Source: Camelus dromedarius (taxonomy: Eukaryota). From it: a DNA stretch of 64,000 nucleotides. Under the pieces are notes generated by a model. The model ran no database searches. It was not told where the DNA came from and saw nothing but the letters and a program-made list of their open reading frames with translations. The position numbers and the translations under genes are program-made. The stretch is taken from the NCBI RefSeq assembly GCF_036321535.1, contig NC_087436.1:15934001-15998000 (forward strand). Reading direction: 5' to 3'. Positions 3,025 to 38,164 of the stretch are shown piece after piece. Position 1 is the stretch's first letter. Every line of letters starts with the position of its first letter.

Positions 3025-3055
<31 letters not shown>

Positions 3056-5050: not shown

Positions 5051-5149
5051 TTTTTTTTTTTTTTTTTTTTTTGAGTAGAGGTCCTGGGGATTGAACCCAG
5101 GACCTTGTGCATGCTAAGTATGTGTTCTACCACTGAGCTATTCCCTACC
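5051..5149 (-). mobile_element. Vic-1-like tRNA-derived SINE
   Basis: T22 tract followed by gaggtcctggggattgaacccaggaccttgtgcatgctaag...taccactgagctat. Confidence 0.85.
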
Positions 5150-5171
5150 TTTTATACATTATTCTTAAGGA

Positions 5172-6701: not shown

Positions 6702-6799
6702 TTTTTTTTTCTTTTTCAAATGGAGGTACTGGGAATTGAACCAAGTACCTCACGCATGCTCAGCATGCGCTCTACCAACTGAGTTATACACCCACCCCC
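6702..6799 (-). mobile_element. Vic-1-like tRNA-derived SINE
   Basis: ggaggtactgggaattgaacc...gcatgcgctctaccaactgagttatac; perfect 14-bp TSD taattgaatttctt at 6688-6701 and 6800-6813. Confidence 0.88.
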
Positions 6800-6823
6800 T
6801 AATTGAATTTCTTCATGACACAA

Positions 6824-8085: not shown

Positions 8086-8197
8086 TTTTGGGAGGGGTAA
8101 TTAGGATTTATTTAATTTATTTTAATGGAAGTACTGGGGGTTAAACCCAGGACCTTGTGCACGCTAAGCACATGCTCTACCACTGAGCTGTGCCCTT
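8086..8197 (-). mobile_element. Vic-1-like tRNA-derived SINE
   Basis: ggaggggtaattagg...gtactgggggttaaacccaggaccttgtgcacgctaagcacatgctctaccactgagct. Confidence 0.82.
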
Positions 8198-11100
8198 ATC
8201 TTAAAACATTTTTTTTTGTTTCAGATATTTTCTCTTTTATTTGGATTTCTAGTGAGTATTAGAGCTTTTATACACATCTGAGTCTCTTTTTAGTTTCTTT
8301 GAATCACTTTTCTCTCTGTTCTTCAGATTTGATACTTTGTTTATATAGAAACTTGATATGTGTGATAAACATGATCTTCAAGTTTATAAACTTTTTCTTT
8401 GCTTTTTCTATTTTCATATTGAGCTCATCTCATGAACATTTTATTTCAACTATTATACATTTCAGTTTTATAATTTCAACATGGTGAATTTTTATATTTT
8501 CTTTCTTTTTATGAGAATGCTATTTTCTGATCCATTTAGTCTGTATTTACCTTTACCTTCTGGAGCATAGTTGTAATAGCTTCTTTAAAATCTTTGTGTG
8601 CTAAGTCTAAGAATTTGCCTATCTCATTAGCATCTGTTCATTGTATTTTCCCATGAGAAATAGTCACATTTTCTTGGTTCTTCATACATTCAGTATTGTT
8701 TAATATGTCAAGGACATTATAAGTGTTATCTTTTATAGATTCTGTGTCTTATAATCCATTAACAAATGTGATTTGTTTTGTTTTGTTTCAGCAAGAAGGA
8801 TCAGATCACAAGTTCTACCTATCCTTTGTGGGTGGTGGTTCTGATGTCACTTCATTTTAAAAACCTCTCTTGTCTTGCTTTGGGTCTTTCTTGCACATGT
8901 ACCATTCAGGGATTAGGCCTAGAATTTGGTAATAATTCACATCTTCTTTCAATTTAGAAAGACTTGATATTCTGGTCTGAGTCTGTCCCATACATGAGCA
9001 TCTCTTGGGTCAGTTTAGGGCTTTTGCAGGTTTTTACACATATTTTCAAGTTCCTTCTCTCTTGTTTGCTTATTTTTAGGACTCCCCCTTGCCTCTCTAG
9101 CCTGTAAGTGCCCATTTTCTCAGTGTCTCTAACCAGAAGGACAGTATTTCTCAGAATATTAGCTACCTGAATGTCTGACAGGGACCAACTTTGAGCCAAG
9201 GACTCATTCTTAGGTCATATTTTACAAGAGAAAGGTGAAGATTGAGACTCTTACCTCTAAAATGGGTAATCTCCAAGTATTAGGTCTCCTGCACCAATAT
9301 ACCTGCTTTTGTTCAGTTTCCAGAGTAGTTAGGAAAATGCTTTTTAAAATTGTATATTTTTTCTATAGTTTTAGTTCTAATACACAAAGTAGTGAGGCTA
9401 TTATGCTTATTACTCCATCTTGGTTGGACAAATGTATAATGGCTTGTGCTCATCATTATGCAGAATATTTTCTCGACTCTAAAAATCCTTTATGCTCTGC
9501 CTATTCATCCCACTCCCCTCCGAACCCAACCACTGATCTTTTTATTATGTTGCTAATTTTGTCTTTTCTAGAATGTCATATAGTTGGTATCATACAGTAT
9601 GTAGCCTTTCCAGATTGGCTTCTTTCACTTAGGAATAAGCATTTAAGATTCCTCCATGTCTTTTCATAGCTTGATAGCTCATTTCTTGTAGGGCTAAATA
9701 ATATTTCATTGTTTGGATGTTCACAGTTTATCTGTTGACATACTGAAGGACATCTTGGTTGTTTGTAAGTTTTGGTAATTATGAATAAAGCTACTATAAA
9801 CATGCTTGTGCAGGTATGTTTGTAGAAGTATGTTTTCAGCTTTGTTGGATAAACATCAAGAAGTGAGATTGCTGAATTGAATAGTAAAAGTGTTTACTTT
9901 TGTAACAAATCGCTGAACTATCTTCCAAAGTGGTTGTACCATGTTGAATTCCCACTGGTAGTGATGAGAACTCTTGTTGCTCCCCATCCTCACCAGCATT
10001 TGGTGCTGTCAGTCTTCTGGATTTTGGCCATTGTAGTAGGTGTGTAGTGGTAATCTCATTGTTTCTTTAATTTGCATTTCCCTGATGACATATAATGTGG
10101 AGCATTTTGTATCCTACTCTTATTTGCCATCTGTATACTTTCCTTGGTAAGGTGTCTATTAAGTCATTTGTCCTAATTTTTTTTTAAATTTAATTGGTTG
10201 TTGAGTTTTAGAGTTCTTCGTGTATTTTGGGTAACAGTCCTTTATCAGATATGTCCTTTGCAAGTGTTTTCTCCCAGTCTGTGTCTTATCTTCTAATTCT
10301 TTTGATACTATCTTTTGCCAAGCAGTTTTTAATTTTAATGAAGTCTAACTTATCAATTTTTTTTTTATTGTGGATTGTGTCTTTGATGCTGTATCTAAAG
10401 AGATGTCACCATATCCATGGTCATCTAGGTTTTCCTCTGTGTTGTGTTTTAGGAGTTTTATAGTTTTGAATTTTACATTTAGGTCCATTTTTAGTTAATT
10501 TTTATGAAGGGTTTAAGGTCTGTGTCTAGATTCTTTGGGTGTGGATGTGTTGTTGTTCCAGCATCATTTGTTGAAAAGAGTACCTTTGGTTCATTGTCTT
10601 GCTTGTGTTCCTCTTTTGTCAAGATTGGTTGACTATATTTATGTGGGTCTGTTTCTAGACTCTCTATTTCATCAATCTATTCATGTATTCTTTTGCCAGT
10701 ACCACACTGTCTTGATTACTATAGCTTTTTAGTAAATCTTGAAGTCAGGTAGCATTAGTGTTACAACTGTATTCTTTTCCTTCAATACTGTGTTGGCTAT
10801 TCTGGGCCTTTGCTCTCTATAAACTTTAGAATGGTTTGTCGATATCTGTAAGATAATTTTCTGGGATTTTTGTTGGAATTGCATTGAATCTATAGATCAA
10901 GTTAGGAATAACATAGATCTTAAGAGTACTGAGTCTTCCTACCCACAAACATGGATTTTCTCTCCACTTACTTAGTTCTTTGATTTCATGCATCAGTTTT
11001 ATTGTTTTCCTCATATAGATATTGATTGTATTTTGGTTAGTATATATCTAAGTATTTCATTTTGGGGAGTCTTATGTAAATGTATTGTGTTTTAAATATC

Positions 11101-12163
11101 ATATTCCACTTGTTTATTATTGGCACACAGGAAAGCAATTGACTTTTTTATATTAAATTTGTATTTTGCAACCTTGTGGTAATCACCTATTATTTCCAGG
11201 ATTTATTTTGTCAGTTCTAGATTTTCTTCATAGTGATCATGTCATCTGCAAACACAGACAGTGTTATGTGTTCCTTCACAATCAGTGTATCATTTATTTC
11301 CTTTTCTTACTTAACTGTTTTAACAAGAACATCCTGTACAATATTGAAAAGAAATGGTGAGAGGGGACATTATTGCCTTTTGCTTCATTGTAGTGGGAAA
11401 GTATTGAATTTCTTCCCATTAAACATAATGTTAGCTGCAGGCTTTTTGTAGATAGTCTTTATCAAGTTGAGAAAGTTACCACTATCCTTAGATCTATTTG
11501 GAGTTTTTAAAATGAATGGCTGTTGGATTTTTCAGACACTTTTTCTGTATCTACTAATATAATCAGCTATTTTCTTATGTGTATGTGATTACATCAGTTG
11601 ATTTTCAAATGTTGAACCAGCCTTGCATACCTGGAATAAATCTCACTTGGTGATGGTACATAGTTCTTGGACTTTTTTGGATTTGATTTGCTAATAGTTT
11701 GCTGAGGATTTTTTCATTTTTATTAATGTAAGTTATTGGTCTAATGTAAGATATTGATAGTTTTCTTGTAATTTCTTTTTCTGGTTTTGTTGTAGGGCAG
11801 TGGTGATTCATAGAATGAGTTAGAAGTATTCCTTCTGTTTCTGAAACAGATTGTAGAGAATTGGTATAATTTTTTCCCCTAAATGTTTAGCAGAATTTAC
11901 CAGTGAACCCATCTGGATTTGGTACTTTCTGTTTTGGGGGGGTTACTCAGTATCTTTAGTAGATTTAAGCCTATTCAGATCATCAATTTTTTTCTTATGT
12001 ATGTTTTGACAGATTGTGTCTTTCAAGGAATTGGTCCATTTCATCTAGGTTATAGAATTTGTGGGCATAGAGTTGTTCATAGTATTCATTTATATCCTTC
12101 ATATGTCTATGGGACATGTGGTGAGACACGTTCTTTAATTTATGGTACTAGTAAATTATGTCC

Positions 12164-18288: not shown

Positions 18289-18481
18289 GAGCTTGCTACA
18301 GTGTTCTGTGTGGCAAGAGTGGATGCTTTCTCTCTGCTATTTTAATCCTAAGAATTCAGATGAGCAGAAGATAACAGAAATGGTATATGCCATATTCAGA
18401 ATCTTACTCTACCATGCAGTCAAATACGAATGGGGTGGCTGGCGTGTGTGGGTAGACACCTTATCAATCACACATTCAAAG
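18289..18481 (+). CDS. LRBA: LRBA coding exon (window exon 8, 193 nt)
   Basis: ttttcag|[68 protein letters not shown]|gtaagt; phase 2 to 0; overlaps ORF 18293..18568. Confidence 0.96.
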
Positions 18482-19069
18482 GTAAGTTTCTGTATGAAAG
18501 TGTATTTCAGAATTTTAAATGTCTATAATTTTGAGTTTTATTTATTTATTAACATTTTATATACTTAAAATATGGGAAAAATGCAGATTATTCTGTGGAA
18601 ATGTAGTGAAATGAACAACTGAAAAAAGGAATGACTAAAAAATATGAAGTATTTACAACTTCTTCAGAAGCAAAATAGTTTTTTTTTCTCCACATATCAT
18701 TTTCACGTGTGCTCAAGTTAATACAATGAAACCTCATAATCCAGAGTAAAGGAATTTATATTTTCAGCAGCCATTTTCAAGCAAGGGTTCTCTGAATTTT
18801 ATGGTATTTTGAAGCTTTGAACACAAGGTGGCACACTATATTCAAAGATGGGAAGTTATTTTAGTAACGTAAATTGGTTGAGTAAACAGAAAAGCTCTGG
18901 CTAATTTTGCCTTTTCTCATGTTACAGTGAGTTAAATTGGTTTGGGAGAATCTACTAATCTCTTTTTTTGAAAAACTCAAGCTAGGGTTAACTTATTTAT
19001 GTATAGCTTTTGTTTAAAATTGTTAATGAAATGTGTTATGCATACAAAAAGGTATAAGCAATAATGTAC

Positions 19070-19880
19070 CTAGTACTGTTTATGAAATTGGGTTCCCCAT
19101 CCCAATTGCTTTGTCTACCATTTTTAGCCCCTCTCTCCTACCCCGCTTACCTGAGTTTGGTGTTTTCATTATGTCTGTGTTGTGTGTATTTTTAACTACA
19201 CACACATACACATACACACACACACTAAAGAATTTTTAATTTCATGTTTACAGTCAATATAAGTGGTATTAAGGCATTTTTCTGCAACTAGCTGTTTTTA
19301 CTTATTGTTTTAGATTTATCCATATTGACCAATGTAGCTGTGTTCATTTTTTCAGTTGTATTGTATTCCACGGTATGACTTTATCCATTTACGAGTTGAT
19401 GAGCATTTTTGATGCATTTTGTATGTATTGGGAAGTTTCTCTCTAGAGAAAAATATCTTCCTGGAAATAGAATTGCTGATTTGTAAGATGCAGATGTTGA
19501 ACATAATAAGATAATGCATTTCCTTTTCCAAAGCGGTGTAGTAGTGTACATTCTCTCCAGCAATGTATTACCCCATATTACCTCATCACTTGCTATGGCT
19601 GGAGTTAAAATTTTTTGCAAGTTTGATGATGCTATGTCTCCATAACATTAATTTGCATTTTCTTATTGTTTTGTGGGAGTTCTTCATGTTCTTGGTCTTA
19701 ATCCTTTGTTAGCTGTATTGTTTATGAATGTCTTATGCCAATTTATTCCTTATCTATTTATTTTTGGAGTTTTATGTTTGTGTCTTCTGAGGAAATTTTA
19801 CATCTCAAATAATTAATGTAGTAAAATTTATTAGTTTCTATTTATGGTTTGTGCTTTTTGTATGTTTAAGAACTTTCTAT
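19070..19880 (-). mobile_element. Old L1ME-like 3' fragment
   Basis: aaatagaattgctg...ttccaaagcggtgtagt...tttaatttgcatttt-like motifs of the antisense L1 3' region. Confidence 0.55.
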
Positions 19881-20308
19881 AGATTCACAGAAGGAATATA
19901 ATTAAATAAACATTCATATTATAAATTGACTAGAAGGCATAAAGAATAGAAACGATAAATTTGATATATCTTTAAATGTTTCATTTTACTGACTATCATA
20001 GTTATTACTCTGGAATATTTTGCCATTCTATTGGAATATACTGTCATTTTCTAAATATATGTTTTTGGTTGTTTGAATAACTTTTAGCTCTTTGAAGGCA
20101 CCTAAGAGTTACTCATTCTGTCTCCTCCTTCAGTGAGAAGAGGTGTGTTCCTATCATGAGGATTTATAAAGATACATTAGATCAGAAGATATTACCATAC
20201 AAATTTATGTTTGAGAATAATCCAGTGCTAGATGGAACAAAGGTGTGATTTTATAAAATGGCTTTCTTTTAGTCACTACATTTTTTAGCTGACCGGTTTA
20301 GTCTAAGG

Positions 20309-20523
20309 CAGAGTTCAGCCAAGCATGGCCTGAGGGCCAGTCTGGCCTGACCTGTTTCGATAAATAAAATTTTATTGGAACACAGCCGCTCCCGTTAATT
20401 TATATATTTTCTATGACTGCTTTCATGCTATAAGTATTGAGTATTTGCAACAGAGACTGTGTGGCCCCCCAGGCCTAAAACATTTACTGTTTGACACTTT
20501 ACATAAACACTTTGCCACCTCTT
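20309..20523. mobile_element. hAT-Charlie MITE (MER58A-like)
   Basis: ggcctgagggccagtctggcc...taaataaaattttattggaacacagcc...gcaacagagactgtgtggccc...tttgccacctct. Confidence 0.75.
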
Positions 20524-20842
20524 GTCTGACTTACTCTAGTTTGTGCTGGTGCACAGCTGATCTGGTTTCTGTTGTAGTGGGCTGCTGAAGTCTGCACTGA
20601 TTTTCTTCTAGTATTGTTTTCCTCTTTACAAAAGATCATGAAGAAAAACAGGATTGAGTTTTGGCTTCACATAATTCGGATTGGATTTCAGAGATATCCG
20701 GGAGAATTGTAGGTTACGAAGTACCTGTATAAATTAGGTTTTTCAAATTTTCTAAATAGTATGTGTTAATTTGGTGCTTTTGCATACGCTTTATGCTGTC
20801 AGGTCCTTAGGAAGAATGGTTAGAGGAGTATAACCTTTAGAA

Positions 20843-21310
20843 CAGTAATTTCTTGAAGCACAGCCTGAAGATGTTGGGAGCCTAAGAGACCATTTCAGGG
20901 AATGGTGAGGTTTTCCTTTCCCAGCTACTTACCTAGTTAGAGGGTGGGTTTTCCATGTACTTCAACCAAAGCAATATAATGCAACAGATTCAATATAAAA
21001 ACAGATATTAGGAAGTAGCCTTCTTCTATTTAGCCAAAATGGAAAGAGATTTGCAAAACTGCAATAATACTGCTCTTCTCATTATTATTTTTTTGTTTTG
21101 AAAAATAATCATTTTTCAGAAAATATGTTACTTATACTAACATACATTGGATGGATTACTATTTTAAAATGAATTATTTGTAAATTTCTTAGTTTTAATT
21201 TCTAATATGATAAGTAGTAATAGATATACCTCATATAAATAGAAGGTTTGGGGGATGTACTTTTGTAAGAGTGTAAGGGATCCTGAGACCAAAATGCCTG
21301 AGAACTGCTG
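20843..21310. mobile_element. hAT-Charlie DNA transposon deletion derivative
   Basis: Termini cagtaatttct...tgagaactgctg; internal cttcaaccaaagcaatataatgcaacagatt and gtaagggatcctgagaccaaaa motifs. Confidence 0.6.
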
Positions 21311-21649
21311 AAGTCCTAGGCTAGGGCCAGTAGCCTAGTCTCCTAGAATTTTCTATCCAAAAAATAAAAGGGTTGGACTAGGAGATATCTCAGGTACCTT
21401 TGAGTTTCTGAGCATCTATTACTAAGTATTTACATCCAGTCACCATTCCATTTGTGTAAGTAATGAAGGGAACATGAACTTTGGAGACAGGATAGTCCTG
21501 GGTTTGAATTCTGATTTATAGTGATTTTTAGTTGTGTAAACTCAGGGAAGTTTCTAAACTTTTCTTTATGTCTAAACTAGAAATGGTAAATGTGTAATAT
21601 GTGTATATATCTGGAATTAGGAGTTAATAAGTGAAATAACAGAAAATAG

Positions 21650-22500
21650 AATTAAATGATTATTTTCCTTTGTTACACTTCTGTCATTCCTCCAGTTAAT
21701 CCTTTTGTTCTCATTCTTACTGCAGGCTAAACCTGATTGCCATCTTGAATTTGTGTTTACATTCCCCTCTCAAAAAAGTTTAAAAAAAAGTATTCCTCAA
21801 TGATACATTCTCTCATTTTGCCTATTTTTATATTTTATGAAAATGGCATTGTACTGTGTGGACTCTTCTGTTACTTAATTTTTCCTCATCAAACGTTTTG
21901 TCTCTGAGATTCTTCTTTAGTGTCACATATAGATTTGCTTCATTCATTTTCACTTCTGTGAATAACTCAGGTGCTCAAAGGCAACGATTTCAATAGAGTT
22001 GTCATTTTCAAACTTCATGTGACTCACAGTGAGACATTTACTGTGACCAGATATGTCTGTGTACACCCATGTGCCTGCGCACAGACACGCACATACACAG
22101 AGACACGCACACACACCTTTCTCCCACCACACACCTGAAACAGAAGTTTCGTGAGACAGTGTTACCCTTTAAATTTTGGTATATAGTGATGCACTGGAAT
22201 GTTCTTTATTCTTTTTCATTTAAAAATGCTGATGATGCCTCAATAAATTGATTCCATAATCCGCCAACTGAGTCATCTTCAGTGTGAAAACAGCTCTGCT
22301 CTAGGAAATATTAGTAGGAATAGAATTGCTAGGTTCTAAGTAATATCAGTTCCTAATCCTTTATACTGTTAGACTTCTTATTTTTGTAAGGTTTTGTCTT
22401 TTGCCTACTTTGAATGATTCTTAATGATTTGTAATTCTTTGTACATGTCCAGATTACTTCTAGTCTGGATATTTCTAATGGTCTGTAGCCTTAGGTATTA
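21650..22500 (-). mobile_element. Old L1ME-like 3' fragments with embedded CA-rich segment
   Basis: aaatggcattgtactgtgtg...ttgcttcattcattttcact...gaatagaattgctaggt; (CA)-rich run 22070-22135. Confidence 0.45.
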
Positions 22501-22914
22501 TTTTCTTCTAGATTTATTAAGCTAAAAATAACTTTATTTAAAAATGTTATTCCCCTCCATAAACACTCTGTTCTCATCTTCTTAGAAAGGCAAACGATTT
22601 CTACCTAATTTTTCACTATTTCCCTTGAAAAAACGTACTTCCTACCTCACCTTACACAATTTCACTTGACAAAAATCTCCACTCTGGCTATGTTGGTTCT
22701 ACTCTTTTTAAAATTAATCAGGCTTTGTTAAATCATCATTTTTGTTTATTTGTGACATGAACTTTGTGCTCATTTGTACTTACCCAAATTATTTATATTG
22801 TTTATGATTTAGCTGGCTACATCACTGTTATATGACAGTTTTTTGTACTCTCAGGCCATGTTGTCATTCTGTATGAATTTACAGCACTTAATTTTCTCTT
22901 GGTGTCTTTCTTAA

Positions 22915-23260
22915 GTTGTTTTTCTCCCCCTCCCTCCCCTCCTTTCCCTCTTTCTTCCTCCCCCTCCCCCCTCCTCTCTCCCTTTCTCCCCTGCTTCTCC
23001 CACCCCCCACTTCCTTACTCCCCCTCTTTCCCCCAGCCTCCTCCTCTTTTTCTCCATTTGGTATGTTTTGTCTGCTCCGTCCTCCCCTGTCTGTGGTTGG
23101 CCTGACCCTCCATGGTCTCTTTCACTCATTTTTGGTCACTATGTCTAGGTCTTACCACAGTTGCCCACCTCTTTCTTTCCCAGTATACTTTGTCTTTCCT
23201 CTTTTTGTTCTTTCCATTCCTCCCTTTTGTTTTTCCTGTCTTCTTCTATTTGAGTACCTT
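22915..23260. repeat. Polypyrimidine (C/T-rich) low-complexity tract
   Basis: 22920-23055 is almost purely C/T on the + strand, with many C3-C6 runs; pyrimidine bias continues to ~23260. Confidence 0.9.
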
Positions 23261-26049
23261 TAGGTTAGAGATATGAATCAGGAAGAGGTCTTATCCTGAA
23301 AGAAATTACATTCAAATATGGAAGTTAATACATGTACTGAAAAACGAGGCAGGAAGGCATAAATGCCATAGAAGAGAGATTCACAGTGAAAGGAGAGGGC
23401 CTTTCAGATGTTTGTAGAGCAGATGTCACTCGACTACAGTCTTGAAGAGTAATAAATAAGATTTGGGCACGTAGCGATTGAGGTGATGAGAATCACTGGT
23501 GGAGGAATTGGCATAAGCAGAGGTGCAGAGGTGGTATCACTGAGGGAAACACGTGGGGAATTGTTTGGTTTGCATGGGGTGTGTAATGTACATGAAGAAG
23601 AGCGGTGGTGAGTGATGTAGCAGATGTGGACTGGCATTTGGTCTTGTCTGATCCTGTGATAACTGTCATGCTGTGTTACTGGTTGAAAGTGGCTGTTACT
23701 TATGAGCTCTCATCAGTAGGGATGAAAGGCTGTATACTCCACGTCTCCCACGGCTGTGCATAGTGCTGAGGACTTGGCAGTTGCACGGTAAATACTTGTT
23801 TCAGGAAGGAGAAGGAAGAAGTACACCATGACTGGTTAGGGCTCTTCGGTGCCACTGTCATGGGGCACCATGCAGCCCTGTATGTGCCTTAGCACCTCAG
23901 TCCTCTCTTATCAGTGATGAAAGTGTCTGTGTCCTTGTCACACAGAGTATGTGGGGGAATCACCTCACCTTGGGATGTGCATCTTACTATGGTTTCCTGG
24001 ACCCTATCTCAATATCTTAATTTGAGTCTCTTGGGATGTTCCTAGAAATCTGTATTTTAAAATAAGCCCGTCTTACGCAGTTCAAATTTTGAGCACACCA
24101 GTGAGTGTACAGGGAATTATTTTTACTATTATAAAATTCTCCCCTTCCCACTTTCACACTAAGATGCTAATATAATATACTCTTTAGAAAGTCTACATTT
24201 TGAGGATAGAAGAATTCTACATAAATTAAATATAGACCCCAGTTAAGACCCATCATACATTTTTTTAAATCTAAGTAAAGCCAGTTTACAGTGTTGTGCT
24301 AATTTCAGTATACTTTTTTATCGTAAAGCAAAACATATTTTTTCTTTCTGAGAGCTTATTTTAAGGCACAGAAAATATTAAAGGAGGAAATATAAACTAT
24401 TCTTATGTAGCATCTGAAATCATTATTTTTGAGGCTCAAATTTACATACAACAAATCCAAAGGAGGCTTTGAGTTTTCTGTGTGGAAAAAAAAATATATA
24501 TGTATATATTTAATTAGCTCATATTTTTCTTTGCTCCAGTGACTTATGGCTTTAAACAGATCTTAAAACCTTTGAAAAGAAAATAGTTACTTTATGGAGA
24601 GGCCTCTTTTGCCTACATTGAGCCAAGAACCAGTCTTTGACTCAAGTTTTAGGATTACAATTATAAAGTGGAATAGATGCATATTAAATTCATTGCAGAG
24701 TGTTTTATCTAAGTAAAACTGCACCTATCCCTTTTTGCTGTTAAGTATACTTTAAAAAAATAACTGTTAAAGCTTTACTCTAAGAAGTGGAAAAGAAAAC
24801 ATTAAAGTTACAAGTTGCTTCTTGTGGGTTTCACCTTTAATTTTAACGTTTCATAAATGTCTTTCAGTGTTATTTCTTTTTATGACTTTTCTTCATTGAT
24901 TAAAGAGTTTTTCTCTTTAATAGGGTTTATATAAAATAGTTTATTTGAGTGTAGCTTTGTTAATGTTTTTGGAATTTTAATATCTTTGTATGTATTTTTA
25001 AAATAAAATGGAAAACTTACACTCTATAGCTCTTCAAATCAATATTTAATAAAGTTTAGGATGGAGCTGAAGTGATTCAGTAAGTAGGTGAACAATTTGT
25101 AGGATGCTGATAATTCTGAAATTATTGAAACCCAATTTTTTTCTCTGTAGATATTCTAAAGGTTTATAAATATTTTCATGCATTTAATACTAAAGAGATG
25201 CATATTTTTTTTCCTTTTTGCAGCCATTTAAAACTCAATATCACAAATTTATAACATGGTTATTTATAAAGAACTGGTGTGTAAAAAACTAATGTTGCAG
25301 AATTGGATAGCTTTTGCAGAGTTACATCAGGATTCATGTAGCTGCTATAAAAAGCCAAAGAAACTCAATTGCAATTTTATTGTCCAGTTTGATAGATATC
25401 CTGCCACCTTTGTAGCAGGGAAGCTGTTTGTCACTGTATCCCTCTCCTCCAACACTTGAACTAGGTTTTATAAGCGGTAATAGGCTCATCTAGTGTAACT
25501 GCACTATGTTAGTTACTTTGGTGTCGGGTTTCAGGTGTTTAATTTCATTATTTTCTTGTGTGTTTTCTAGGTTTTTATTATTCATCTTTTTTTTTGTTTT
25601 TTTCAAATTGAGCATTATCTTGAATAATTAAATAAGACTGTTTTTACTTGGTATGCTAAAATGGTTCTACTCTTTCATTGAAATTTAGATTAAAACATTT
25701 AATATGTTCTGAATTATGAGAACTGTCCAAAAACATTTTTTTCCTAAACAAATAAAACTACAATCTTTAGATACTATATTTTGTCTAGGCCTATATTCCC
25801 AGGGTAGAATGGGCCTATGACTTAAAATAATCAACAAGTGAAAGTTTTTCACACTTACTTAAAGATATAATATGATTTCGATTTTTTCCCCAGATAACGA
25901 ATTTGGGTTAAAGTATTTAATTATCTTGACTTATTTGGATTATTTTAAGATTTTACTTGCTGTTAACAGTCTGATGAAATGGCTTAAACATAAATGTGAG
26001 TCATTTTATTTAAGAAGAAAGTACAGTTATTCATATACAAACTCAGGTT

Positions 26050-26373
26050 GTGTCTCCAGGTGAGCCAACAGGCCCCGGAGGTATGGACCACCTGGTCAGA
26101 GAATCATAAACCGGAGACAACCTGACTTCTGAAACTGCAATTAAGAAGTGTCACAAGACGATGATTAATCCCAGCTTCTTTGTTCTTCCCCTTTAAAAAC
26201 ACCCCTAACTCAGAGACCAAGTTGGAGTGGATCTGAGACTTGTTTCCCATTCCCTTGCTGGGAGCCCTGCAAAAAAAACCAAAAAAACAAAAAAAACCCT
26301 TACTTTGTTGCAAACTTCGCTGTCTGAGTTTGGCTTTCTGCGCCGTGGGCACACAAGCCTTTGCTGGGTTACA
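26050..26373 (+). mobile_element. ERV1-type LTR (3' part)
   Basis: ccctttaaaaac TATA-like box ~26192, A-rich run where the polyA signal is expected (26271-26297), U5-like gtttggctttctgcgccgtgggcac...gggttaca terminus. Confidence 0.6.
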
Positions 26374-26614
26374 AAGCCTAGCAACTCCTGTACCTGTAGC
26401 AGGCCCAGCGCACAGGTCTGTTGACCTGTGGAGCAGCCAGGTTCGAGGAGCTTAAGGAGAGCGCAGTGCAAGCTGGGCGGTCCAGAGTGGGCGCTTTCAC
26501 CTGGGGGAGGGGCCTGGTCTCCAAGAGAAGAGCCTGGTGCCTTGGTAACCTTCACCACTTGGGAGGTAAAATGAGGTCCTTTTTCGTTTTCTCTTGAGGA
26601 GTATCCTTCCAGAT

Positions 26615-26777
26615 CAGCTGTTCTCAACCTTGTCTGCTCATTGAAATCACCTGGGGGCTTTCAAAGCCCTGGTCCTTGTGCCCGCCTCCAGGGATGCTGA
26701 TTTAACGAGTCAGGGGTGTGGCCTGACACTGAGATTCTGACGCACTTGGTGTTGGCAGCCAGAGCTGAGAAGCACTG
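26615..26777. mobile_element. MER5A-like hAT MITE
   Basis: Terminal inverted repeats cagctgttctca...tgagaagcactg, internal aatcacctggggg; decayed 8-bp TSD ttccagat/ttctagac. Confidence 0.7.
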
Positions 26778-27084
26778 TTCTAGACTTTAAAATGAGGTTT
26801 AAGCAATTAGCCAAGGACACAGAAGCTTGTGAGCCGTGAGGAGCCACCTAGGACGGGAGCTGTAGGCTGCTTTGAGCGGGGCACGCAGCAGCCACTGATT
26901 TCTCTGGATGGGGTGCTGCTGCATCTGTGCAGACGGCTGAGTTCAGGTAATGGCATTTTCCTTCTCCCCGTGTTTTTCAAAATGAAAATTCCTCCAGGTA
27001 CTGTTCTGGAAGGAAACCGCCCCCCACCCCCACCCCAACCATCTGTGTGCGTTGCTTTGGAAAATGTATGCCAACGCAGACCTC

Positions 27085-27545
27085 TTCTAGGTCCTCTCCC
27101 CGGTCTCATCATTCCCTCGGCCTCCTCACTTTGTGCTGAACACACTGGTCTTTAGGTTCCTTGAACAGCTAGGCTGTTGGTCCCACAGGACTTGGCCTGG
27201 GCTGTGTTTTGCTTTCATGGAATGTTCTCGCCCCAACCCTCTACACTTTCTGCACCCCTGCGCCCTCTCATCCCATCCTGCCTGGCTTGACTTGAAGGTG
27301 TTTCTCAGGGAGGCCTCCTCCTGCCTAGGTTACTTTCTGTCACACAGGTTTAGTTCCTAATGACGTCACAGTGTAGCCTGAGTCTCTGATTAACTTATTT
27401 ATCTACTTGTATATCATCTAGTCCTTTAGGCTGTGAGCCTCATCAAGGGGAGACCATGTGTTATCTAGTTACTGCTGCACCTCAGATTTTAGCACAGTCC
27501 TCACCCATATCTTGTATTTAATAGATTTTTGTTGAATCGATGTGT
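27085..27545. mobile_element. L2 3' fragment
   Basis: ggctgtgagcctcatcaagggg...tagcacagtcc...ttttgttgaat, typical of the L2 3' end. Confidence 0.55.
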
Positions 27546-27705
27546 TAGTCAAAGAGGTGTTTGTGCTTGTGAAAATTCACTATTTGCTATATGTAAGATG
27601 CATGCATTTAGATACATAAATTATATCAACATAAAAGAAAACTAAAGTGAACATAATTATTCAATTCTTTGTTTTGTATACCTATTTCTGGGCCAAAACT
27701 GCACT

Positions 27706-27840
27706 TTTTTGAGGGAGGGGTTAATTAGGTTTGTTTATTTATTTATTTAATTTATTTTTAGAGGAGATACTGGGGATTGAACCCAGGACCTCTTGCATGC
27801 TAAGCATGTGCTCTAGCACTTGAGCTATACCCTCCCCCCT
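27706..27840 (-). mobile_element. Vic-1-like tRNA-derived SINE inside an old L1 fragment (~27660-28260)
   Basis: tactggggattgaacccaggacctcttgcatgctaagcatgtgctctagcacttgagctataccctcccc; perfect TSD aaaactgcact at 27695-27705 and 27841-27851. Confidence 0.88.
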
Positions 27841-28887
27841 AAAACTGCACTCTTTTGATCACTGTAACTTTACAGTAGGTTTGCTACCTACAGAATAAGT
27901 CCACCTTTTTTCTTTCAAAAATTTCTTGCGCATGTTTGCTCACAGGTGAATTTTAGGATCAATTTTTCAAATTCATTAGAAAAATTGTATTGTGATTTTT
28001 ATTGGGATTATGCCTTATTTTTAGTTTATTTTTAAAGTGATTATATTTCTACAATATTGACACTTTCCATCCAGTTAACATGGTTCATTTATTCTAGAAC
28101 TTTCAATCAAGTTTGGTATTCTTTAGGTAGGCCTTTAACATTTTGGGGTGTATTATGTATATATGATGTGTATTACATAATTACGGTTTCTGTTGCTATT
28201 ATAAAGGAAATATTTATCCCATTACATTCTCTAATCATTACTGGTATCTAAAAAGGCTTTTCTCTGTTTAAAAAAAAGAAGAAAGTACAGTTTAGTTTAA
28301 GTAAAGAGCATATGGGAGTCAGTTTTGTTAGAATTCTGTAAGTGGTTTCTAAAAAGCATTTAAAATTTTTTAAGATACAAACTGATGTATATAAAATGCA
28401 TGTTATTTGTATGTGTGGGTTTGTGGTGGCTGTATAATAAAATTAAAAGCCACATATTTTAAGAAATTTCAAAAGAGTTACAAAATGTTCATATTTCATG
28501 GATTTTCAGTATTTTACACTTAATTTCTAAAGTTTTCGTTGGCTTTAAAAATTTTTAAACCAAATAGTATTATAAAAATATTTAAAATAATATATGCTCA
28601 TTGTAGTAAATTTGGAACCTACTATAACTCTACACAAAATTCAGGAATCATTTGTTATCCAGTCATCTGTACATAGCTTAATATTTTGGTGAAAGACTTT
28701 CCAGTCTTCTATACATAAATATACATATACATATACATATACATATAATTATGTTCTTACAGAAATACCACATTTGTGGTATTTTACAGTATTTCAATTA
28801 ATGATATACTTTTAAATGAATTTTAGTGGCTGTGTATTATTAGGTATATGTATATTACATCATATTATGGAGAAATAAAGTTAAGGG

Positions 28888-30020
28888 CAAAAGCTGCAGC
28901 TTTGATGTAACGTCCAAATGCTATCAGACCACTTGCAATTCTTGAAAGGAGTGATTGAGTAAATGATTCAAGTTTACTTTTCATATTCTGACATTTTCCA
29001 AAGTGTTATTTGGGAAAATTGGTGGAGGTGGTATTTTAAAAATCTACTGAGTTGTGTTACAACGTATTGCATATGCGCCATAGTTTAATTTTCCCTTGTC
29101 TTTGAGCAGTGATGAGCCTGCTCCTGGTATTTTGCAGGATAAATTCCTAAAGTTACAGAAGGAGGTGTCCGTACATGTTTTTAAAAGTTTTAGAACGTTT
29201 TGCTAAATAGGTATCTAAACAATTCTGTTACAGTTTATTATTCTAGCTTTGGATGAGATCACCTGTCTAGGTTGTTCTTCAGAAAACAAAATTGGTCAAG
29301 ATGACTGTTTTTAAAAAAGAAAAGATTAGTAAGTTAGTAACTGTGTGATACTATTTTATTTCACTGTGCTTTCGATCTTCATCTATATGAAATGAGTATT
29401 ATACTACCTGTCTTTTTAGGGCTGTTCTGAAGATTCTCTCAATACAATGCTTAGAACAGTATAGAGTACCCATTCTGTATATCTTAGCTATTGTTGCAAG
29501 TACTTAAAAACCTTATTGTCCACCAAAATGAGCTCAGCTTGGTATTTATTACATATATTTTCAAGCATGTTGTGGAACAGGGAACAATTATTGATTAGAT
29601 GGTAATCTTCATTTTTAAGGAAGTTGGAGGGAAGAATATATTTTTTAAAGTAAATTTCTTTTACATTAATTATGGAATCTTTCCATATGTTAGTATGATA
29701 TTTATAGAGATTAAGAGACTACAAAGTGGTTGGAAGGTTTCTCTTTAAATTGCATCCTCACTTGATGTTAATAAGGAAGTGTTGTTCAAAATCATTTTAT
29801 GAAAGAGTAAAGTTTGTTTTTATATTTAGTAGTATTGCTTACTGAAAAAGGTGAACTTAAAACCAAAAGTTGCAACTTTGATGTAACATCTGAATATTAG
29901 ACCACTTAAAATTCTAGGAAGAAACAATTGCATGAATTAGCTTGCTTTTCATATTCAGGATTTCTTTAAAACTCCGTTCAGAAAAATTGGTGGAGGTAAT
30001 TTTAAAAAGTATATTGAAAT
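28888..30020 (+). repeat. Diverged direct repeat, two ~160-bp copies (28888-29051 and 29864-30020)
   Basis: Collinear shared blocks: caaaag(c/t)tgca(g/a)ctttgatgtaac, agaccactt, tttcatattc, aaaattggtggaggt, attttaaaaa. Confidence 0.8.
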
Positions 30021-30046
30021 TAATTTAAAACATATATATATATTAT

Positions 30047-30526
30047 TGTTGAAGAGAACCAGAGTCAGATAATAGTTAAAGCAGTAAAATTGAATTTTAT
30101 TCAGGAACTATTGCACTAGGGGAACAAAAACCTGAGTATAGAACTTACTCAGTTTTGAATACAACAAGGAAAAGTGGGGATTTATAGCCAAGGAGCAAGG
30201 TCGGAGTGAGGAGGGGGTTCAGTGGATGGGAAATTAATAGGAGGAAATATCTAGGGAGAGAGGGATTCTGGTTAAACAGACTTTAGTGGGACTCTTGCTG
30301 AAGGCAGGCCAGGCTGATTAGCTGTCAGCTGGAGGACGGTGGAAAAATGAGGAATTTGATCAGATAGGAGGGTGGTCAGATATTGAGGATAGGGGATTCT
30401 CCCTAAACTGATGTAGGATTCTGGCTGAAGCTCCGAGGTGTAGGTTGGACAAAGACAGAGGGCCTAGCTGAGATGACGGTTCAGAGGAACCTGACTAAAG
30501 TTTGGTAAAGGAGAGAGTCTTTGTCA
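30047..30526 (-). mobile_element. ERV1 solo LTR (MER31-like)
   Basis: TG...CA termini; minus strand starts TGACAAAGACTCTCTCCTTTACCAAACTTTAGTCAGG and has AATAAA near its 3' end; flanks ttat/gtat. Confidence 0.8.
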
Positions 30527-31179
30527 GTATAAACAAAAAGTACAGTTGAACTACTGTTAAATTCATTTCTCTTTCTGTGGCAGTTTGCGTATATTTATGT
30601 CCCATTTTTTGTTTTTTATCCTTTCTGTTTTTTGTAGTGAATTTATTTTTAGCTACAAATGAGTGGAATAGTAGGGTTTACAAGTCAAATCCATTTAAAA
30701 ATCAGGTAGTTGCCTTTTTAAGCAGTTTATAAAGCTTGCCCTTACCTGTAAGGATTAGACTCTGACTCCTCGTGGTTCACAAAGCCTTTAGTAGTCCAAA
30801 ACCTGCTTACCATTGACACTGCTTACTTAGTATTTTTATTACATGTCCCTCCTAGAAATGCTGTAATCTTATTGCTTTACCAAATAACTCAGTGTCTTAA
30901 ATGAACCATGTTCTTTCAGCATCCATTCTTACACTTATCTTTCAAAATTCCTTCCGCGTGGCATCTCCCTTTGCCCTTAATTCTTCTCTATCTTGCTTAT
31001 CAGTAATCATTAATGAAGACCAAGCTTAAATGTCAACATCTTCCTGGTCCTTCCAGGTATTTCTGGGCACAATTATGTACTGCCAGTAGTATCCTGTATA
31101 TATCTCTAAACTACAGTTCGAATTACTCGAAAAAGTCCTTAAAACATTCCCAAAGGGCACACAAAAGGCATGAACAAGC

Positions 31180-32930
31180 GGAAAAGCATATTTGCTAAAA
31201 TGGGAAGACTCAACATCATAAAGTTTTAGTAACTTAACATTTCTTTAGGTTATTTTATAAATTTAATGAAACCCCAGGAAAATACTAATTAACCGCTTTT
31301 CTTTTTGTGGGGAGAAAATAGAGCAAGCTAACTATTAAGGAAAAGTGAGGCAAAGTAAACAAGTAAAAATATCCAAGAAGGCTCTGTAAAGAGCTATGAG
31401 AGGTGACTTACTACCAAATACTAACATTATTACCAAATGTCATTAATTTAAAAGATGTAGTGTTGACACATGAAGAGATAGGCTGACCGGGGAAAAAGAA
31501 AAGAAAGTCCAGAAACATACAAAATTCCATATAAGACTTTAGTGTATTATAAAGGATGAATCTCAAAACACCAGGGAAAAGTCAAACTATTCAATAAATG
31601 GTGTTGGGATAATAGAGGATTCATCAGAAAGAAAAGTTGGAGCATCAATAAATTTAACATATCGATCAATTAAATGGGTAGTGAAGTGGAGGTGGGGAAT
31701 GGAAGAAACCGTAAAAGTACTAGAGGATAACACAGATAATTCTTCTGTAACCTTGGAGTGTATAAGAATTTTCTAACTGTAGTTTAGAATCTGAAACCAT
31801 TAAAGAGGAATAAAGACTAATTTTTTTTTTACTACATTAAAACAGATACAAACCTTTGTGACCAAAAACCGAACAATACCATAAGCAAAATCAAAAGGCA
31901 AATGACAAATTTGAACCAGGACAAAGGACCAGAGCAAAGATAACATTTCTAAAATACAAAGTGCTCCTAAAAAAAGATAGGAAAAGACAGCCTAATAAAA
32001 AAATGGATGAAAGTCATGACCAAAAACCTGTAGAAAACTAAGTAAAAAATACTTTCGATTTATGAAAAGATGCTCAACCTACTCATTGTAAGGGACTGCA
32101 AATTTAAACTATTCTGAGATAGTTCTCCAAGATATATTAAGTGACAAAAGGAAGTGTGGAACAGAGTGTATAGTGGATATTAGTGAGTTAAACAAGTGGG
32201 AAAATGAGAATTCATATATGTGTTTATATGCACAAAAATACCCTGGAATTAATGGCTGATTGCTTGGTTGTTGAGGAATTGTGTAGATGAGGACTGGGTG
32301 TGAGGGGGACTTTACACTATATACTATTTTATACGTAAGTCATGTGACTTGTAGGGGAGGAGAAGCTTTGCCTTTACCCTCTTAAGGTCCCTGACTGCAA
32401 CTGAAATTTAAGCTGACCAAGAGTGATTATCAGGAGGAAAGTATATGATTTTATTTAATGTAAGTTTTATGTAACATGGGAGCCTTCATAAGGAAATGAA
32501 GACCCAAAGAAACATTTAAGTTTGAGGGTTTTTTTTTTTATTTTAAGTTTGATGAAGAGTCGAAATTCAAGAAAAACCTGGTCGGACAAAGGGTTTGAAC
32601 TAAGGGTAGTAAACTGGGGGAGAATCAGCATAGCCTGTTCATTCAGATTCTTCTCAGCATCCCTGTGTCTTTTGAGATAAGGATGCTCTTTTTGTTTGGG
32701 TGTAAGGAAGGCACCTCTGATTATAAGGGGTGAAATTACAGGGCCATCCTAGAACCTGCTGTTTCTATGATCTGCTTCAGGGGAGGGTGGCGGGGTCAGA
32801 GAGTCTTTCCTGCACCTACTGTTACTCAGATTCCTTCATCTTAAAATGATCAGTATGCCAATGTGCCGTATTTTGGGGTAGTGTGTTCTGGACTCCCATC
32901 AAAATATACTACCTATTCAAAAATGTTTTT
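31180..32930 (+). mobile_element. Old L1ME-like ORF2 3' part and 3'UTR (sense), interrupted by an LTR
   Basis: gggaagactcaacatcataaag, tattcaataaatggtgttgggataa, aaaaggcaaatgacaaa, tatgaaaagatgctcaacct; A-rich + strand. Confidence 0.75.
32350..32901 (-). mobile_element. ERV1 solo LTR (MER34/MER39-group-like)
   Basis: TG...CA termini; minus strand starts TGATGGGAGTCCAGAACACACTACCCCAAAATACGGCACATTGGCATACTGATCATTTTAAG. Confidence 0.75.
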
Positions 32931-35900
32931 AAGCTTATTACGCAAATGTATAGTGCTTGTTGTATATATATGACTTGTTTTCTTCATGGGATTTGTTTCT
33001 CTTTGTTATTGAACTTATGTTGTTTTCATAACCAATTCTTTTAGGCAGTTTTGTTAGGATAGCCTAGGCTTTATGCTTGATACACCTCCACTCAGGTTTT
33101 ATTAGGGTAGTATGTAAGAGCGTAGGTTTGACCAGTGTTCAGATTTGTAACTAGGGTGCTTTGTATAAAGTAGATCACTGAATATGTATACACTTACAAA
33201 TATTTATAATTTGATTTTAACTATTGTATCTTTTACCTTACGCTATTATTGTTGCAAGCTGTTGTATCAGAGTCTCTATAAAACATGTCCTGTTATGTGG
33301 TGGTGGTCATGTTGAGCTGTGCTTGTTGATACCACATATGGGAAGATTCAGCTATTTTAAAAGAAAAATATGTCTTATTTATCAAATGTGAAAGGTTGGT
33401 AACCTCTAAAAGTTAGAAGTTAGCATATCATATTCAGCTAGATTTCCAAAGGAAAATAGCATACAATGAAAAAGGTGCATTTGCTTAAAAAAGAAAGCCA
33501 GTTCCTAAACATTGCCTAACATTTAAAACAGTCTAAATTTTATAGATTAATTTTTTAAAATACATGGATTAATGATGTTGGTGTCTTGCTATATTGCATT
33601 CATCTTTTATCTCCTAATTAGTAAATTTGAGTCAATTAAGTTGAAAGTAATAGCTAAAGAAATGTTGTAGTTATTAGCTCATGAATATCTTTAACTAGTA
33701 GTTTATAGAGTGCTTTCCAAACATTACAAACAGCTATAGATTAGCTATCAAATGATTGTGAAGATTAATGAGTAGTCTTTTAGCTGAGTAATTTAGAACA
33801 ATATCTGGTAATTAATTAAGAATTATCAGTCACAAATACCTTTAGGAAAACAGTATCAAAAAAAGATAACAACAATGATAGTTACTCTGTTGTCATTTAG
33901 CTTTTAGACTATTGGAGTACATTAAAAGGAAGTTTAAAAATCAACTTCAAAAACTTAAAAGCACTTTTAATATTCATACTTACAAAAGAAAGAGTAAGCA
34001 AATTGGGTTGCTTAGGAAAGACAAAGCACTGTTTAGTACAGATTTGACTACAAATCTGCTTATCACAAAAGAAAATATATTCCTGGCACACTGAGAATGT
34101 ACTTTATGAAACTGTACATTGCTTTCAATTGAAATGTGTATTATCTAAACCATCTTCTTGTGCTTGAAAATTTAACATTAAATACTAGCTTTTAACTGTC
34201 TTTTCAAATGGCCAATTGAAAGTTTGTCTGCTGATTATGAATATAGTTAGAATGTGAAAAAGAAATATGTTCCACAGATTTACACTTCACGCTTAGAATG
34301 AACGGTCTCGTCAAATGTTTGAAAGACCATGACGACATGTTGTAAATTAAGTGAATACTGGTAAGAGCATCATGTAAACAAATCTTTAAGAGGGAATTTG
34401 GGATAGCAAATATATATATTTTCTAACGGCCTTGACGGAGATATGGAAATCCAAGAGAACTTCCTCAAGTTGTTTATAAACCAGCAGGAAAGGCCAGTTC
34501 TATATAATTGACTATATGCTATAGCTAAAATAAGGTATAAAAGTTTTGTTTCTTTGATGTATCTATGTTAGTAACCTTGATGAAAGCATTAAGATAAAAA
34601 TATGAGTGATATTTTTCAGTACTTTAATCATTTTACAGTTTTTTCTCCATTAAGATTGTGTCCTATTACCAAGTAATTTAAAAAATATTAGTATTTAGAT
34701 TTAACATGTAGATCAGATATTAAGATTTCAAAATGTTTATTAAGTCCCTGTTGTACACCATTTTAGGATGATGATTGACATTCATCTTAAATATATATTG
34801 GGCAAAGATAGTTGTAGGATTTTGAAATTTTACCATACTGTTTTAACATCCTGAATGAGTTTTATAGTGGCAATAATGTGGGTTCTAACTCTTCAGTTTC
34901 AAGTCTGCTTGATGTACTCTCTAAGACAGTGCTCTTTAGTATGGGAACATACTTGGCTTTGGAATGGATTACAGTGTTTTTGCTAATAACTTTCTTTGTG
35001 CTAGTTATATTAGTAGATCTGGAGGTGGAGTGGCAGTCCGCCTCCACCCCACATTAGGAATATCACTGTTGGTCTTGTTATAAGATGAAAATTTATCCTT
35101 ACTCTACTAATTATCCAGTGTCTCAGTTTTTTTCTTATTTGAATTTATTTTTAATTTCACTCAAAAATTTTATTTTTTATTTACATTCCGCCACTTCAGA
35201 CTTTGTTCATTTTTACTTACATGTTTTTCTGGATATTTGCAATGGTTCTGTTTGTCTCTATAACTTGGTACTTTGTGATGCTGGCTCAGAATATACTTAG
35301 GTTATTAAAACATTTGTGATTGTTTTCACTTAATGCCTCAGTTCCAGCTTTCATTATTTAAATGTAATTGATTCAGACTTATTCCCGTGTCTGTGATCAT
35401 AATGACTTACTCTGAATAGTTGTTTTTGATGTTCATTTGTCTGAATTGTTTATATTTCGTAAGAATAGAAAACTTTTCTTTTTTTTAGGTGGGCCTGTCT
35501 TATTAATATCACTGATCTGTACTTGCCCAAGAAATTTTGACTGAAAGAATGTTACTTTGTTATATAGGGCAATTTGCTAGATGCATATCTGTCTTAATAG
35601 CATAATTTTTGGTAGATCTTTCTATGGGTAGCACAATGCCCGGCATGCTACAGCTGATCAGTACATTTTTGTTGAGTGAATAAATGGGGAATTAATCAGT
35701 TAAAATAAAGAACTCAGTTTAAGGAAGGTATTGGCCTTCTGGGTATAAAAGAAATTGATTAATTTTGTTAATGTTACTGTGCCATTTTACTCTTTGGTGT
35801 TGAGTACATGCACTTCATTTTGAAATGAGTTCCCAAATATTTGCAGTTAGGAAAAATGTTTATTTCCTAAATATTTTTATTTCAGTTATACCGCATTATG

Positions 35901-37102
35901 GCAAGAATGTGTTGTGTATGTCATGAGGAAAGGGTAGTTAATAGTTAATAATTTTGTTTACCTTTTACCCATGTGCATGTGCACCTGTGATCCAAAAAGC
36001 CCTGTGGATCTTCTTTTGTTATTATCTCCTACCATCCTCTTATATATACTAGGGCTCAATAAAGGTTTCTTGAATGAAGATTCAGTGTATTATATATGTT
36101 GTAATAATACAGGTTACAGGAGCAAACAGTTCTAGCACTGATAAGCTGTAATTATGCCTATACCTTCTGCTGGTGTTACCCTGTTTTTTTGAGAGGTGTT
36201 CCCATTGAAACACTGGTGGCAGTCGCATAATTGTGACTATAGTAATCCTCGATGGGATAAGAAAACTATAAACCTTTTGACGTTAATAATCACAGCACTC
36301 TCTTTTATACTTTTCCTTTTAATTTATGTTTTCCTTTTAGTTGGGTTACAGGCTAAGCGTGATATGGACATGTTCACAGTGCTGAATTCGTAGTAGTCTC
36401 TCATATATAACATACAAGTGGAATGAATGGATGTATGGATGGATGAACTGGAACTTTCAGATCATTTGTGATCAGTTCAATTTTGAAAATTATGGTTGAC
36501 CTTTAGGGAAGGATTGGACCTTTCTTTTTAATTGCTAAAAGAATTTGAATTCTATAGCTTAGTAAGAAAAAGATTTAGTAGCTTTTATATGGAGCTACTG
36601 TTATATGTAACATATATAACATATAAGTATATAATATGCATAATATATAAAGTGAACATAATTGATATTTTTTATCTCTGCTGAGGATAAATCATGGGGA
36701 AATGGGTTTTTATCTCATTTGAAACAATGTATTACATAGTGCACAAAGCACTTCCCAAGGGTACATACTTAGATCCTAGTAAAATTATAGAGGTCAGTAG
36801 AATAGTGTATTCTTTTCCTATATTATATATCTTTAAAAATAGGCTAAATAGTTATGTTCTTGTTGTTGTTTGATGGCATGCCACCTGTTAGCATTAAGAT
36901 TAGCTGTAATTTTTTAAGTATTTAGATTTTAGTTATTGACTTATGTTTTATTTATCATTTTATGTGATAAAGATATAGGAAAATTATCTTGTTGCATTAT
37001 ATAAACCATGTATTTGAAAAATTAAATATTTTTATTTTATGTTCTATATGCTCTGTTCATTTGTTGGAGCATATTTTGACTGCTTGTATGTTTTTCATTT
37101 AG

Positions 37103-38164
37103 GTCACTTTTGAAATACACAAAGAAAACCTTGCCAATATATTTAGGGAACACCGGGGACAAATTAATGAAGAAATAGGACAGTGTTCTTCAAGTCCAAT
37201 TCAAGCAGTCTCTGGCATTAGCAGGGGTGTTAATGTTTCAGTAGGACCCCAGCAGTCAGATACAAAGGATTCTCCCTTGTCTTCTCATATCACCGGAAAT
37301 GGTGATGAAAAGTCAAGTGTTGAGAAGACAAGTTCAGTAGAGTCTGCATCCAGCGTTGAACTGCAAACTTATAATACATCTCATGAAGAAAGGAAAACTG
37401 GGCAAGAAAATGAGGAGCTACTGGATGAAGTCCCTTTAGAAGAAACACTGACAAATGAAACAGTTAATACAGGTGATTTAGAAGTATCTTCTGACATAAT
37501 AGAAGCTGCGACTGTTTCCTCTAATTCTTTTAAAACAACTGACAAAGATACAATGACTGTCAGTGAAGTAACTGCTTCCATAAGTTCTCCTTCAGAAGAG
37601 GATGCTTCAGAGGTGCCAGAATTACTGGATAAGTTAATAGTAGAGGAAGAAGATGATGACGATTATGTAGAACTGAAGGTAGAAAGTAGCCCTACTGAGG
37701 AAGCCAGTTTGCCCACAGAGCTCCAGGATAATCGTTTGTCTCCAGCTGCATCTGAAGCCAGTGAAAGACTCAATGTGTTTAGTAATGACCACAAATTAAT
37801 ATTTCAAGAAGAACCTGTAAGTAAGAAGCAAACTGACATTGACACTCAAGACCCTAAAGATTCTGGCATCTTGACAATGACAGCATCGGGGTCTTCAGCT
37901 ACCTCACCAGGCACTACTGCTTCCCAGACAACTGACCAGTCAGACTTTGGTCAGATGCTGGAGGAAGGGGAGAAAACAGCTGACGTTGCTGGAGAAACCA
38001 AACTAATTAGTGAGTCTCATGGTAACATACTCGAGTCTCCTACTACTTCTGAGCAGAGGATTGCTAAGTTGGATGTTTCCAGTGTTGCTACAGATACTGA
38101 GAGACTGGAATTGAAGGCTAGTGGAAACATGGAAGCATCTCAACCTCATCAACCTGTGCTTGAG
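37103..38164 (+). CDS. LRBA: LRBA large coding exon (window exon 9, 1062 nt), acidic Ser/Thr/Glu-rich linker
   Basis: catttag|GTC; VTFEIHKENLANIFRE...EEEDDDDYVELKVE...QPHQPVLE; GAG|gtgatt; 354 open codons, in frame with ORF 37277..38215; phase 0 to 0. Confidence 0.95.

Follow-up and report, generated by a model that had tools for sequence, protein, structure and literature searches.

Movement of non-L1 DNA by the machinery of the L1 retrotransposon is a known, if fairly rare, kind of event. Processed pseudogenes of the endogenous retrovirus HERV-W, for instance, are copies of viral RNA that end within the long terminal repeat (LTR). In these, LTR-derived sequence was moved by L1 machinery, with no integrase (PMC5016936, PMC5537654). 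Tailless or internally primed retropseudogenes have flanking duplications and little or no oligo(A), and stem from defined RNAs, namely tRNA, snRNA, 5S, 7SK and mRNA (PMC5322556). Orphan L1 3' transductions carry non-exonic DNA with no companion young mobile element; in 1,019 human genomes, 48 of them were found beside 878 partnered ones, an orphan being recognised by alignment (at least 75%) of its insert with a non-exonic locus elsewhere in the genome (PMC12350158). Here we describe a block of DNA in the dromedary, Camelus dromedarius, that lies in an intron of LRBA at positions 26029-28275 of a 64,000-nucleotide stretch (contig NC_087436.1 of assembly GCF_036321535.1, positions 15,934,001 to 15,998,000; hereafter the window). 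It is likely a single, 5'-truncated copy, ~2.2 kb long, of a non-exonic read-through RNA, made by L1 machinery through target-primed reverse transcription (TPRT).

Like an orphan L1 3' transduction, the block appears to consist of non-exonic DNA unaccompanied by a young mobile element, and it has a putative duplication at an L1-like nick motif and a 3' A-run. Unlike the described cases, it has a 6-A tail and no poly(A) signal, neither its donor nor a source L1 is seen, and it is probably old rather than polymorphic. Because the class requires a donor locus outside exons (PMC12350158), we class the block as a probable TPRT insertion rather than a demonstrated orphan transduction. It resembles the tailless retropseudogenes in its flanking duplication, and A-rich priming would explain its 3' end (PMC5322556); in contrast to those copies of defined RNAs, it looks like unspliced genomic DNA. 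With the HERV-W copies it shares LTR-derived sequence apparently moved by L1. Unlike them, it has only the 3' part of an LTR, runs on for ~1.9 kb into host-type DNA and contains no internal viral sequence.

The block is bounded by a 17-bp repeat, AAGAAGAAAGTACAGTT, that is exact at 26012-26028 and 28276-28292 and has no other site in the window with up to 2 mismatches. Two matches to this 17-mer occurred in 0 of 100 shuffles, for a pattern picked post hoc. A preliminary description of the locus had reported the perfect repeat, the TT before its left copy and the short A-run before its right copy, and all three are borne out: the repeat is unique in the window, the left edge reads TT/AAGA, and 6 A stand at 28270-28275. 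The nick site corresponds to TCTT/AA on the bottom strand, with the TT/AA core present, and 17 bp fits the range of 5-25 bp applied for TPRT duplications (PMC12016303). Indeed, a 17-bp repeat at a TT/AA nick together with a 3' A-run is the pattern of L1 TPRT (PMC12016303). The full signature, as we defined it, has TT before the left copy, AA as the first bases of the repeat, and five or more A ahead of the right copy, on either strand; none of 100 local Markov resamplings produced it. The two copies agree at 17/17 positions, and we read them as a probable duplication rather than a mere match. An unspliced block with a very short A-run is also what a DNA-level copy would give, either as a templated insertion at a staggered break or as a duplication, and a partnered L1 transduction could have lost its L1 part later. 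These routes are highly improbable: a DNA copy would have to reproduce the duplication from TT/AA with the A-run on the correct side (the TPRT pattern of PMC12016303), and a clean loss of L1 up to the repeat requires a second precise event.

Base composition points to the same left edge. A GC change-point at 26041 (support interval 26032-26056), located independently of the 17-bp repeat, falls ~12 bases from its left copy and coincides with the largest 500-bp GC step of the whole window; the step at 26028 is equalled or exceeded at 0.06% of window positions. The two flanks are near-equal in GC (0.292 vs 0.289), as expected of once-continuous flanks. The first ~1.3 kb of the block had been called clearly more GC-rich than the flanks, and its unique sequence richer in GC and CpG. 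The step at the left repeat stands, and the extent has to be revised to ~1.5 kb, to ~27500 (right change-point 27506), with a GC of 0.54 across 26375-27085. The CpG observed/expected ratio of this part is indeed raised, at 0.34 vs 0.19 for the window, and a ratio of only 0.34 rules out a CpG island.

The contents also suggest transport. The block opens with the 3' part of an LTR-like element, which we take to be ERV1-like. A TATA-like stretch lies near 26193; an A-rich microsatellite occupies ~26271-26297, presumably where the poly(A) signal of such an LTR is expected. The element ends in CA. No exact 4-6-bp duplication followed by TG was found in 25700-26150 (two 1-mismatch 4-mers only), and an exact 4-mer match occurs solely at 25421, in AT-rich sequence ~950 bp further upstream; a CA end with no such start at the left fits an element cut at the insertion boundary. 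Further in lies a decayed miniature inverted-repeat transposable element (MITE) of hAT type, presumably MER5A-like, whose terminal inverted repeats match at 10/14 positions and whose 8-bp flanks match at 6/8. Decayed repeats inside an undecayed 17/17 duplication suggest that the contents had already aged at another locus when they were moved. The idea first put forward for this block, an insertion by L1 machinery of DNA from another locus, is thus well supported internally by nick motif, repeat, A-run, GC step, cut LTR, and decayed repeats in an undecayed duplication.

Several observations weigh against a TPRT insertion. Of 100 local Markov resamplings of the window, 27 contained a non-simple 17-mer pair with a spacing of 100-10,000 bp, and the window itself has two unrelated exact 17-bp pairs, at 7376-7392/11864-11880 and 16063-16079/17299-17315, so the 17-bp repeat alone is weak evidence. 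The signature criteria were set post hoc, with the site already seen, and the nick site is one mismatch off the strict motifs TTTT/A, TTTT/G and TTTC/A (PMC12016303). The final third of the block, ~770 bases with a GC of 0.304, matches the flanks in AT-richness, so composition gives no mark of the right edge, and the best L1-like alignment stops 60 bases before that edge. The tail has only 6 A, where recent human insertions have median tails of 30-38 A (PMC12016303, PMC12350158), and no poly(A)-signal hexamer stands near it, the closest being TATAAA at 28200. At 2.25 kb, the block is longer than validated primate germline transductions, which measure 51-1570 bp (PMC4862182). Finally, donor and empty site are both unseen, and the search of public runs described below spans the interior only and is silent on the junctions. 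As to the two unrelated 17-bp pairs themselves, they have neither nick motif nor A-run and are taken as chance or old-repeat matches.

Part of this would suit contents native to the intron, with an LTR inserted in place beside an old GC-rich stretch and a coincidental 17-mer match. Exact 17-mer pairs do arise by chance, the right third of the block is like the flanks in GC, an in-place LTR would likewise produce a GC step, and the donor is unseen. We nevertheless regard native contents as improbable. The nick motif, the A-run (0/100), the largest GC step and the L1-like end must then all coincide with the repeat copies, and a solo LTR inserted in place is expected to show a TG start beside a 4-6-bp duplication of its own, of which the search of 25700-26150 found none.

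The 3' end bears on how a TPRT copy would have been primed. The lack of AATAAA near the tail had been pointed out before, and in fact the block's + strand contains neither AATAAA nor ATTAAA. This absence is not significant (null mean 2.1, P(0)=0.125), and selection against poly(A) signals was rejected on that ground. With no signal hexamer within 70 bases of the 3' end, either the tail has been shortened or priming was internal; tailless retropseudogenes that were primed internally on A-rich RNA and carry duplications have been described (PMC5322556).

What is seen directly is the repeat with its nick motif and A-run, the step in base composition and the decay of the contents; behind these we infer an RNA intermediate, a donor and a truncation. 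An RNA polymerase II transcript at a different, more GC-rich locus would have begun upstream of the LTR-like element, crossed the LTR, which is without AATAAA, and then continued through ~1.9 kb of ordinary genomic DNA. L1 ORF2p would have nicked the LRBA intron at TT/AAGA, with reverse transcription primed on a since-shortened poly(A) tail or on an internal A-run. Synthesis would have halted within the LTR, short of whatever drove the transcript, and a second nick 17 bases off would have created the duplication. Since the copy begins ~160 bases upstream of the TATA-like stretch, the RNA may well have started further upstream than the LTR promoter, and the LTR's own promoter is an unlikely source of it. 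Given TPRT, an L1 that read through its own poly(A) signal, which would make this a true orphan transduction, has somewhat less than an even chance of being the source, and a host pre-mRNA or long non-coding RNA is a possible, more tentative candidate. The preliminary description offered only these two and overlooked a third, the read-through of a provirus past a 3' LTR without poly(A) signal, which we consider unlikely; for RNA of any other kind there is very little room. The insert is most likely neutral passenger DNA.

Public sequencing runs were searched with the interior 26029-27690 only, the junctions lying outside the query. Among the 24 runs listed, 14 hold 0.98 of the interior's sequence words; eight of these were flagged as a possible source, leaving six from four studies. 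A share of 0.98 in unflagged runs indicates that the interior is real DNA of the species. Four runs with a share of 0.00 were set aside and are no proof of absence. These data also touch on an assembly artefact in which a contig from elsewhere was misplaced in the intron via a short overlap. Misjoins would leave the endonuclease motif and A-run unexplained, and the interior recurs at 0.98 in runs of several studies, though these do not address its position, so that we find such a misjoin scarcely credible.

Three RNA runs from reproductive samples (two studies) hold 0.44-0.65 of the interior words, and three runs of another organism, guessed to be RNA (two studies), hold 0.75-0.81, which indicates similar sequence in at least one further organism label. 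These shares exceed what the LTR piece alone, about one-fifth of the query, would give; the words could equally come from transcription of the donor, from LRBA pre-mRNA or from DNA carry-over. The RNA runs are of interest for the comparison with gibbon LAVA, an intronic patchwork with TPRT hallmarks. Like LAVA, the block combines unique DNA, a short interspersed element (SINE) and an antisense old L1 fragment ahead of an A-run, the layout of the LAVA 3' end (PMC5174737). The block might be a member of a composite, non-autonomous retroposon family of camelids, or a copy of a non-coding transcript that was retrocopied repeatedly, built of old repeat scraps and unique DNA and moved by L1 in trans. 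The layout and the RNA-run shares speak for this. In contrast to LAVA, the block has no variable-number tandem repeat or SVA part and no terminal poly(A) signal (PMC5174737), no tandem array is seen in the sequence or the repeat list, there is a single copy in 64 kb, and the RNA words may derive from LRBA pre-mRNA or library DNA; we think such a retroposon very improbable. Likewise a long shot is a camelid read-through RNA, expressed in the germ line and retrocopied many times, of which the block would be a truncated copy and which would represent an undescribed LTR-headed composite family comparable to LAVA. On that proposal, the RNA would have been released when the A-rich microsatellite replaced the LTR poly(A) signal, and the family would also place a sense-strand LTR promoter in LRBA.

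To return to the TPRT insertion, its sequence does not look like a coding retrocopy: five open reading frames (ORFs) of the block have no Pfam match, and three ORFs have no true protein relatives. For the ORF at 26208-26660 on the minus strand, 0 of 70 protein candidates were confirmed, and for that at 26811-27152 on the plus strand, compared with longer proteins, 0 of 184. The ORF at 26810-27151 on the minus strand gave two hits in a full HMMER search, P0001 and P0002, which we rejected as artefacts: they are Myb-family proteins in which 16-17 tandem segment copies each match 12/37 residues, at 24 bits. In both proteins, which come from an unrelated organism, the segment is 60 residues long and its tandem copies are exact; an oddity of assembly or of exon duplication is the probable cause.

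Searches for relatives elsewhere were negative in collections that carry little weight here. Metagenome scans, in a collection without mammalian genomes, confirmed 0 of 502 candidates for the block sequence and 0 of 203 candidate stretches for the left-junction frame, and viral contigs, a poor place to find mammalian introns, gave 0 matches to one LTR 21-mer. Within the window, the 5' end of the block, LTR-like by eye, matches none of the L1-like stretches. A literature search, with most subscription papers and supplements outside its reach, returned no paper on an insertion in the camel LRBA intron and none on orphan transduction in non-humans, and the accessible part of a camelid transposon survey (PMC8605555) contains nothing on such events.

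The remaining contents of the block are listed in Table 1. An earlier account as a patchwork holds for the decayed MITE and the repeat-like pieces, overlooked a tRNA-derived SINE at 27695-27858, and used family labels given by resemblance. The unique sequence after the LTR has no match elsewhere in the window, and the ORF covering it has no protein relatives. The MITE proper spans 163 bp at 26615-26777. The decayed part of the sequence that follows it is presumably L2/MIR-like. The SINE has an 18-bp duplication of its own (27695-27712/27841-27858, matching 17/18) and is 80-88% identical to four further copies in the window; Rfam detected only the tRNA heads of three SINEs. With a 17/18 match for the SINE and 17/17 for the outer repeat, either insertion may have come first, and dating the block by its perfect repeat was rejected as too weak on the same ground. 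The other four SINE copies (3040-3149, 5057-5166, 6702-6811 and 8107-8216) are all on the minus strand like that of the block, and the copy at 6.7 kb has an exact 14-bp duplication. By general resemblance, this SINE family is presumably vic-1-like, vic-1 being a camelid element. SINEBase gives vic-1 as a simple SINE of camels (PMC3531059). The fragment at the right edge aligns to another old fragment of the window, at 10707-11134, up to 28210 (score 66 vs a shuffle maximum of 49). The 376 bases past the right repeat score 39 vs a shuffle maximum of 44; the old-L1-like similarity thus ends at or before the right repeat. We take the fragment to be old L1.

Table 1. Coordinates of the LRBA exons, the insertion edges and the contents of the block (window positions)
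Feature	Position	Strand	Basis
LRBA coding exon, 5' side of host intron	18289..18481	+	Open AG..GT exon; Pfam DUF4704 positions 424-486
TT 5' of left repeat (TT/AAGA), L1-endonuclease-like nick site	26010..26011	+	Sequence; consensus TTTT/A(A), PMC12016303
Left copy of putative 17-bp target-site duplication	26012..26028	+	Exact match; GC change-point adjoins
LTR-like element, 3' part, 5' end apparently cut by insertion edge	26029..26373	+, sense to LRBA	CA end at 26373
GC-rich, apparently unique non-coding sequence	26374..26606		Composition; no window match
Decayed hAT-type MITE with 8-bp flanks	26607..26785		Inverted repeats, central palindrome
Unique GC-rich sequence, then decayed repeat-like sequence	26786..27560		Composition; ORFs without true protein relatives
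tRNA-derived SINE	27695..27858	-	Rfam tRNA at 27762-27834, 43.9 bits
Presumed old L1-like fragment, ending near right edge	27860..28269	-, antisense to block	Alignment within window
A-run of 6, remnant tail or internal priming site	28270..28275	+	Sequence
Right copy of putative 17-bp target-site duplication	28276..28292	+	Exact match
Next LRBA coding exon, large, 3' end provisional	37103..38009	+	Exon scan; protein relatives

LRBA is encoded on the + strand, and the block appears to be non-coding: the exon scan found no candidate coding exon inside it. Three exons, at 13695, 14970 and ~18290, have matches to Pfam DUF4704, with an E-value of 1.3e-21 for the third. For the exon from 37103, 16 relatives were found at E<=1e-20, of which 7 are named LRBA by their source, with a best identity of 74-79%. 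The exon ending at 18481 is joined directly to the 37103 exon in 12 of 13 relatives that carry the ITHSK motif, which places the block inside one intron, 18482-37102 (18.6 kb).

If confirmed, the block would add an example from a non-primate mammal to the germline events in which L1 mobilises kilobases of DNA other than its own. Repeat annotation would fragment such a block, so events of this kind are probably undercounted in camelids. Presence or absence of the block could be used as a marker to compare camel species. With the block, an LTR fragment lies in sense orientation within an immune-gene intron; an effect on LRBA is not indicated, there being no candidate exon and no canonical poly(A) signal. 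Greater weight would attach to the locus only if the donor were a multi-copy, germline-expressed element.

The sequence to the right of the block has features of its own. An imperfect AT-rich inverted repeat of ~180 bases at 28463-28642, 61% self-complementary, is possibly a decayed MITE. An old local duplication is represented by the stretches 28888-29042 and 29864-30008, which lie ~976 bp from each other and share 70% identity across 155 bases. A G-skewed stretch at ~30047-30527, with TG..CA on the minus strand and near-matching 4-bp flanks, is probably a solo LTR, a label given by eye, as is that of a second LTR-like stretch at ~32350-32901 with TG..CA on the + strand. Between them, at ~31100-32150, lies an A-rich fragment, sense to LRBA, that we take to be old L1-like sequence.

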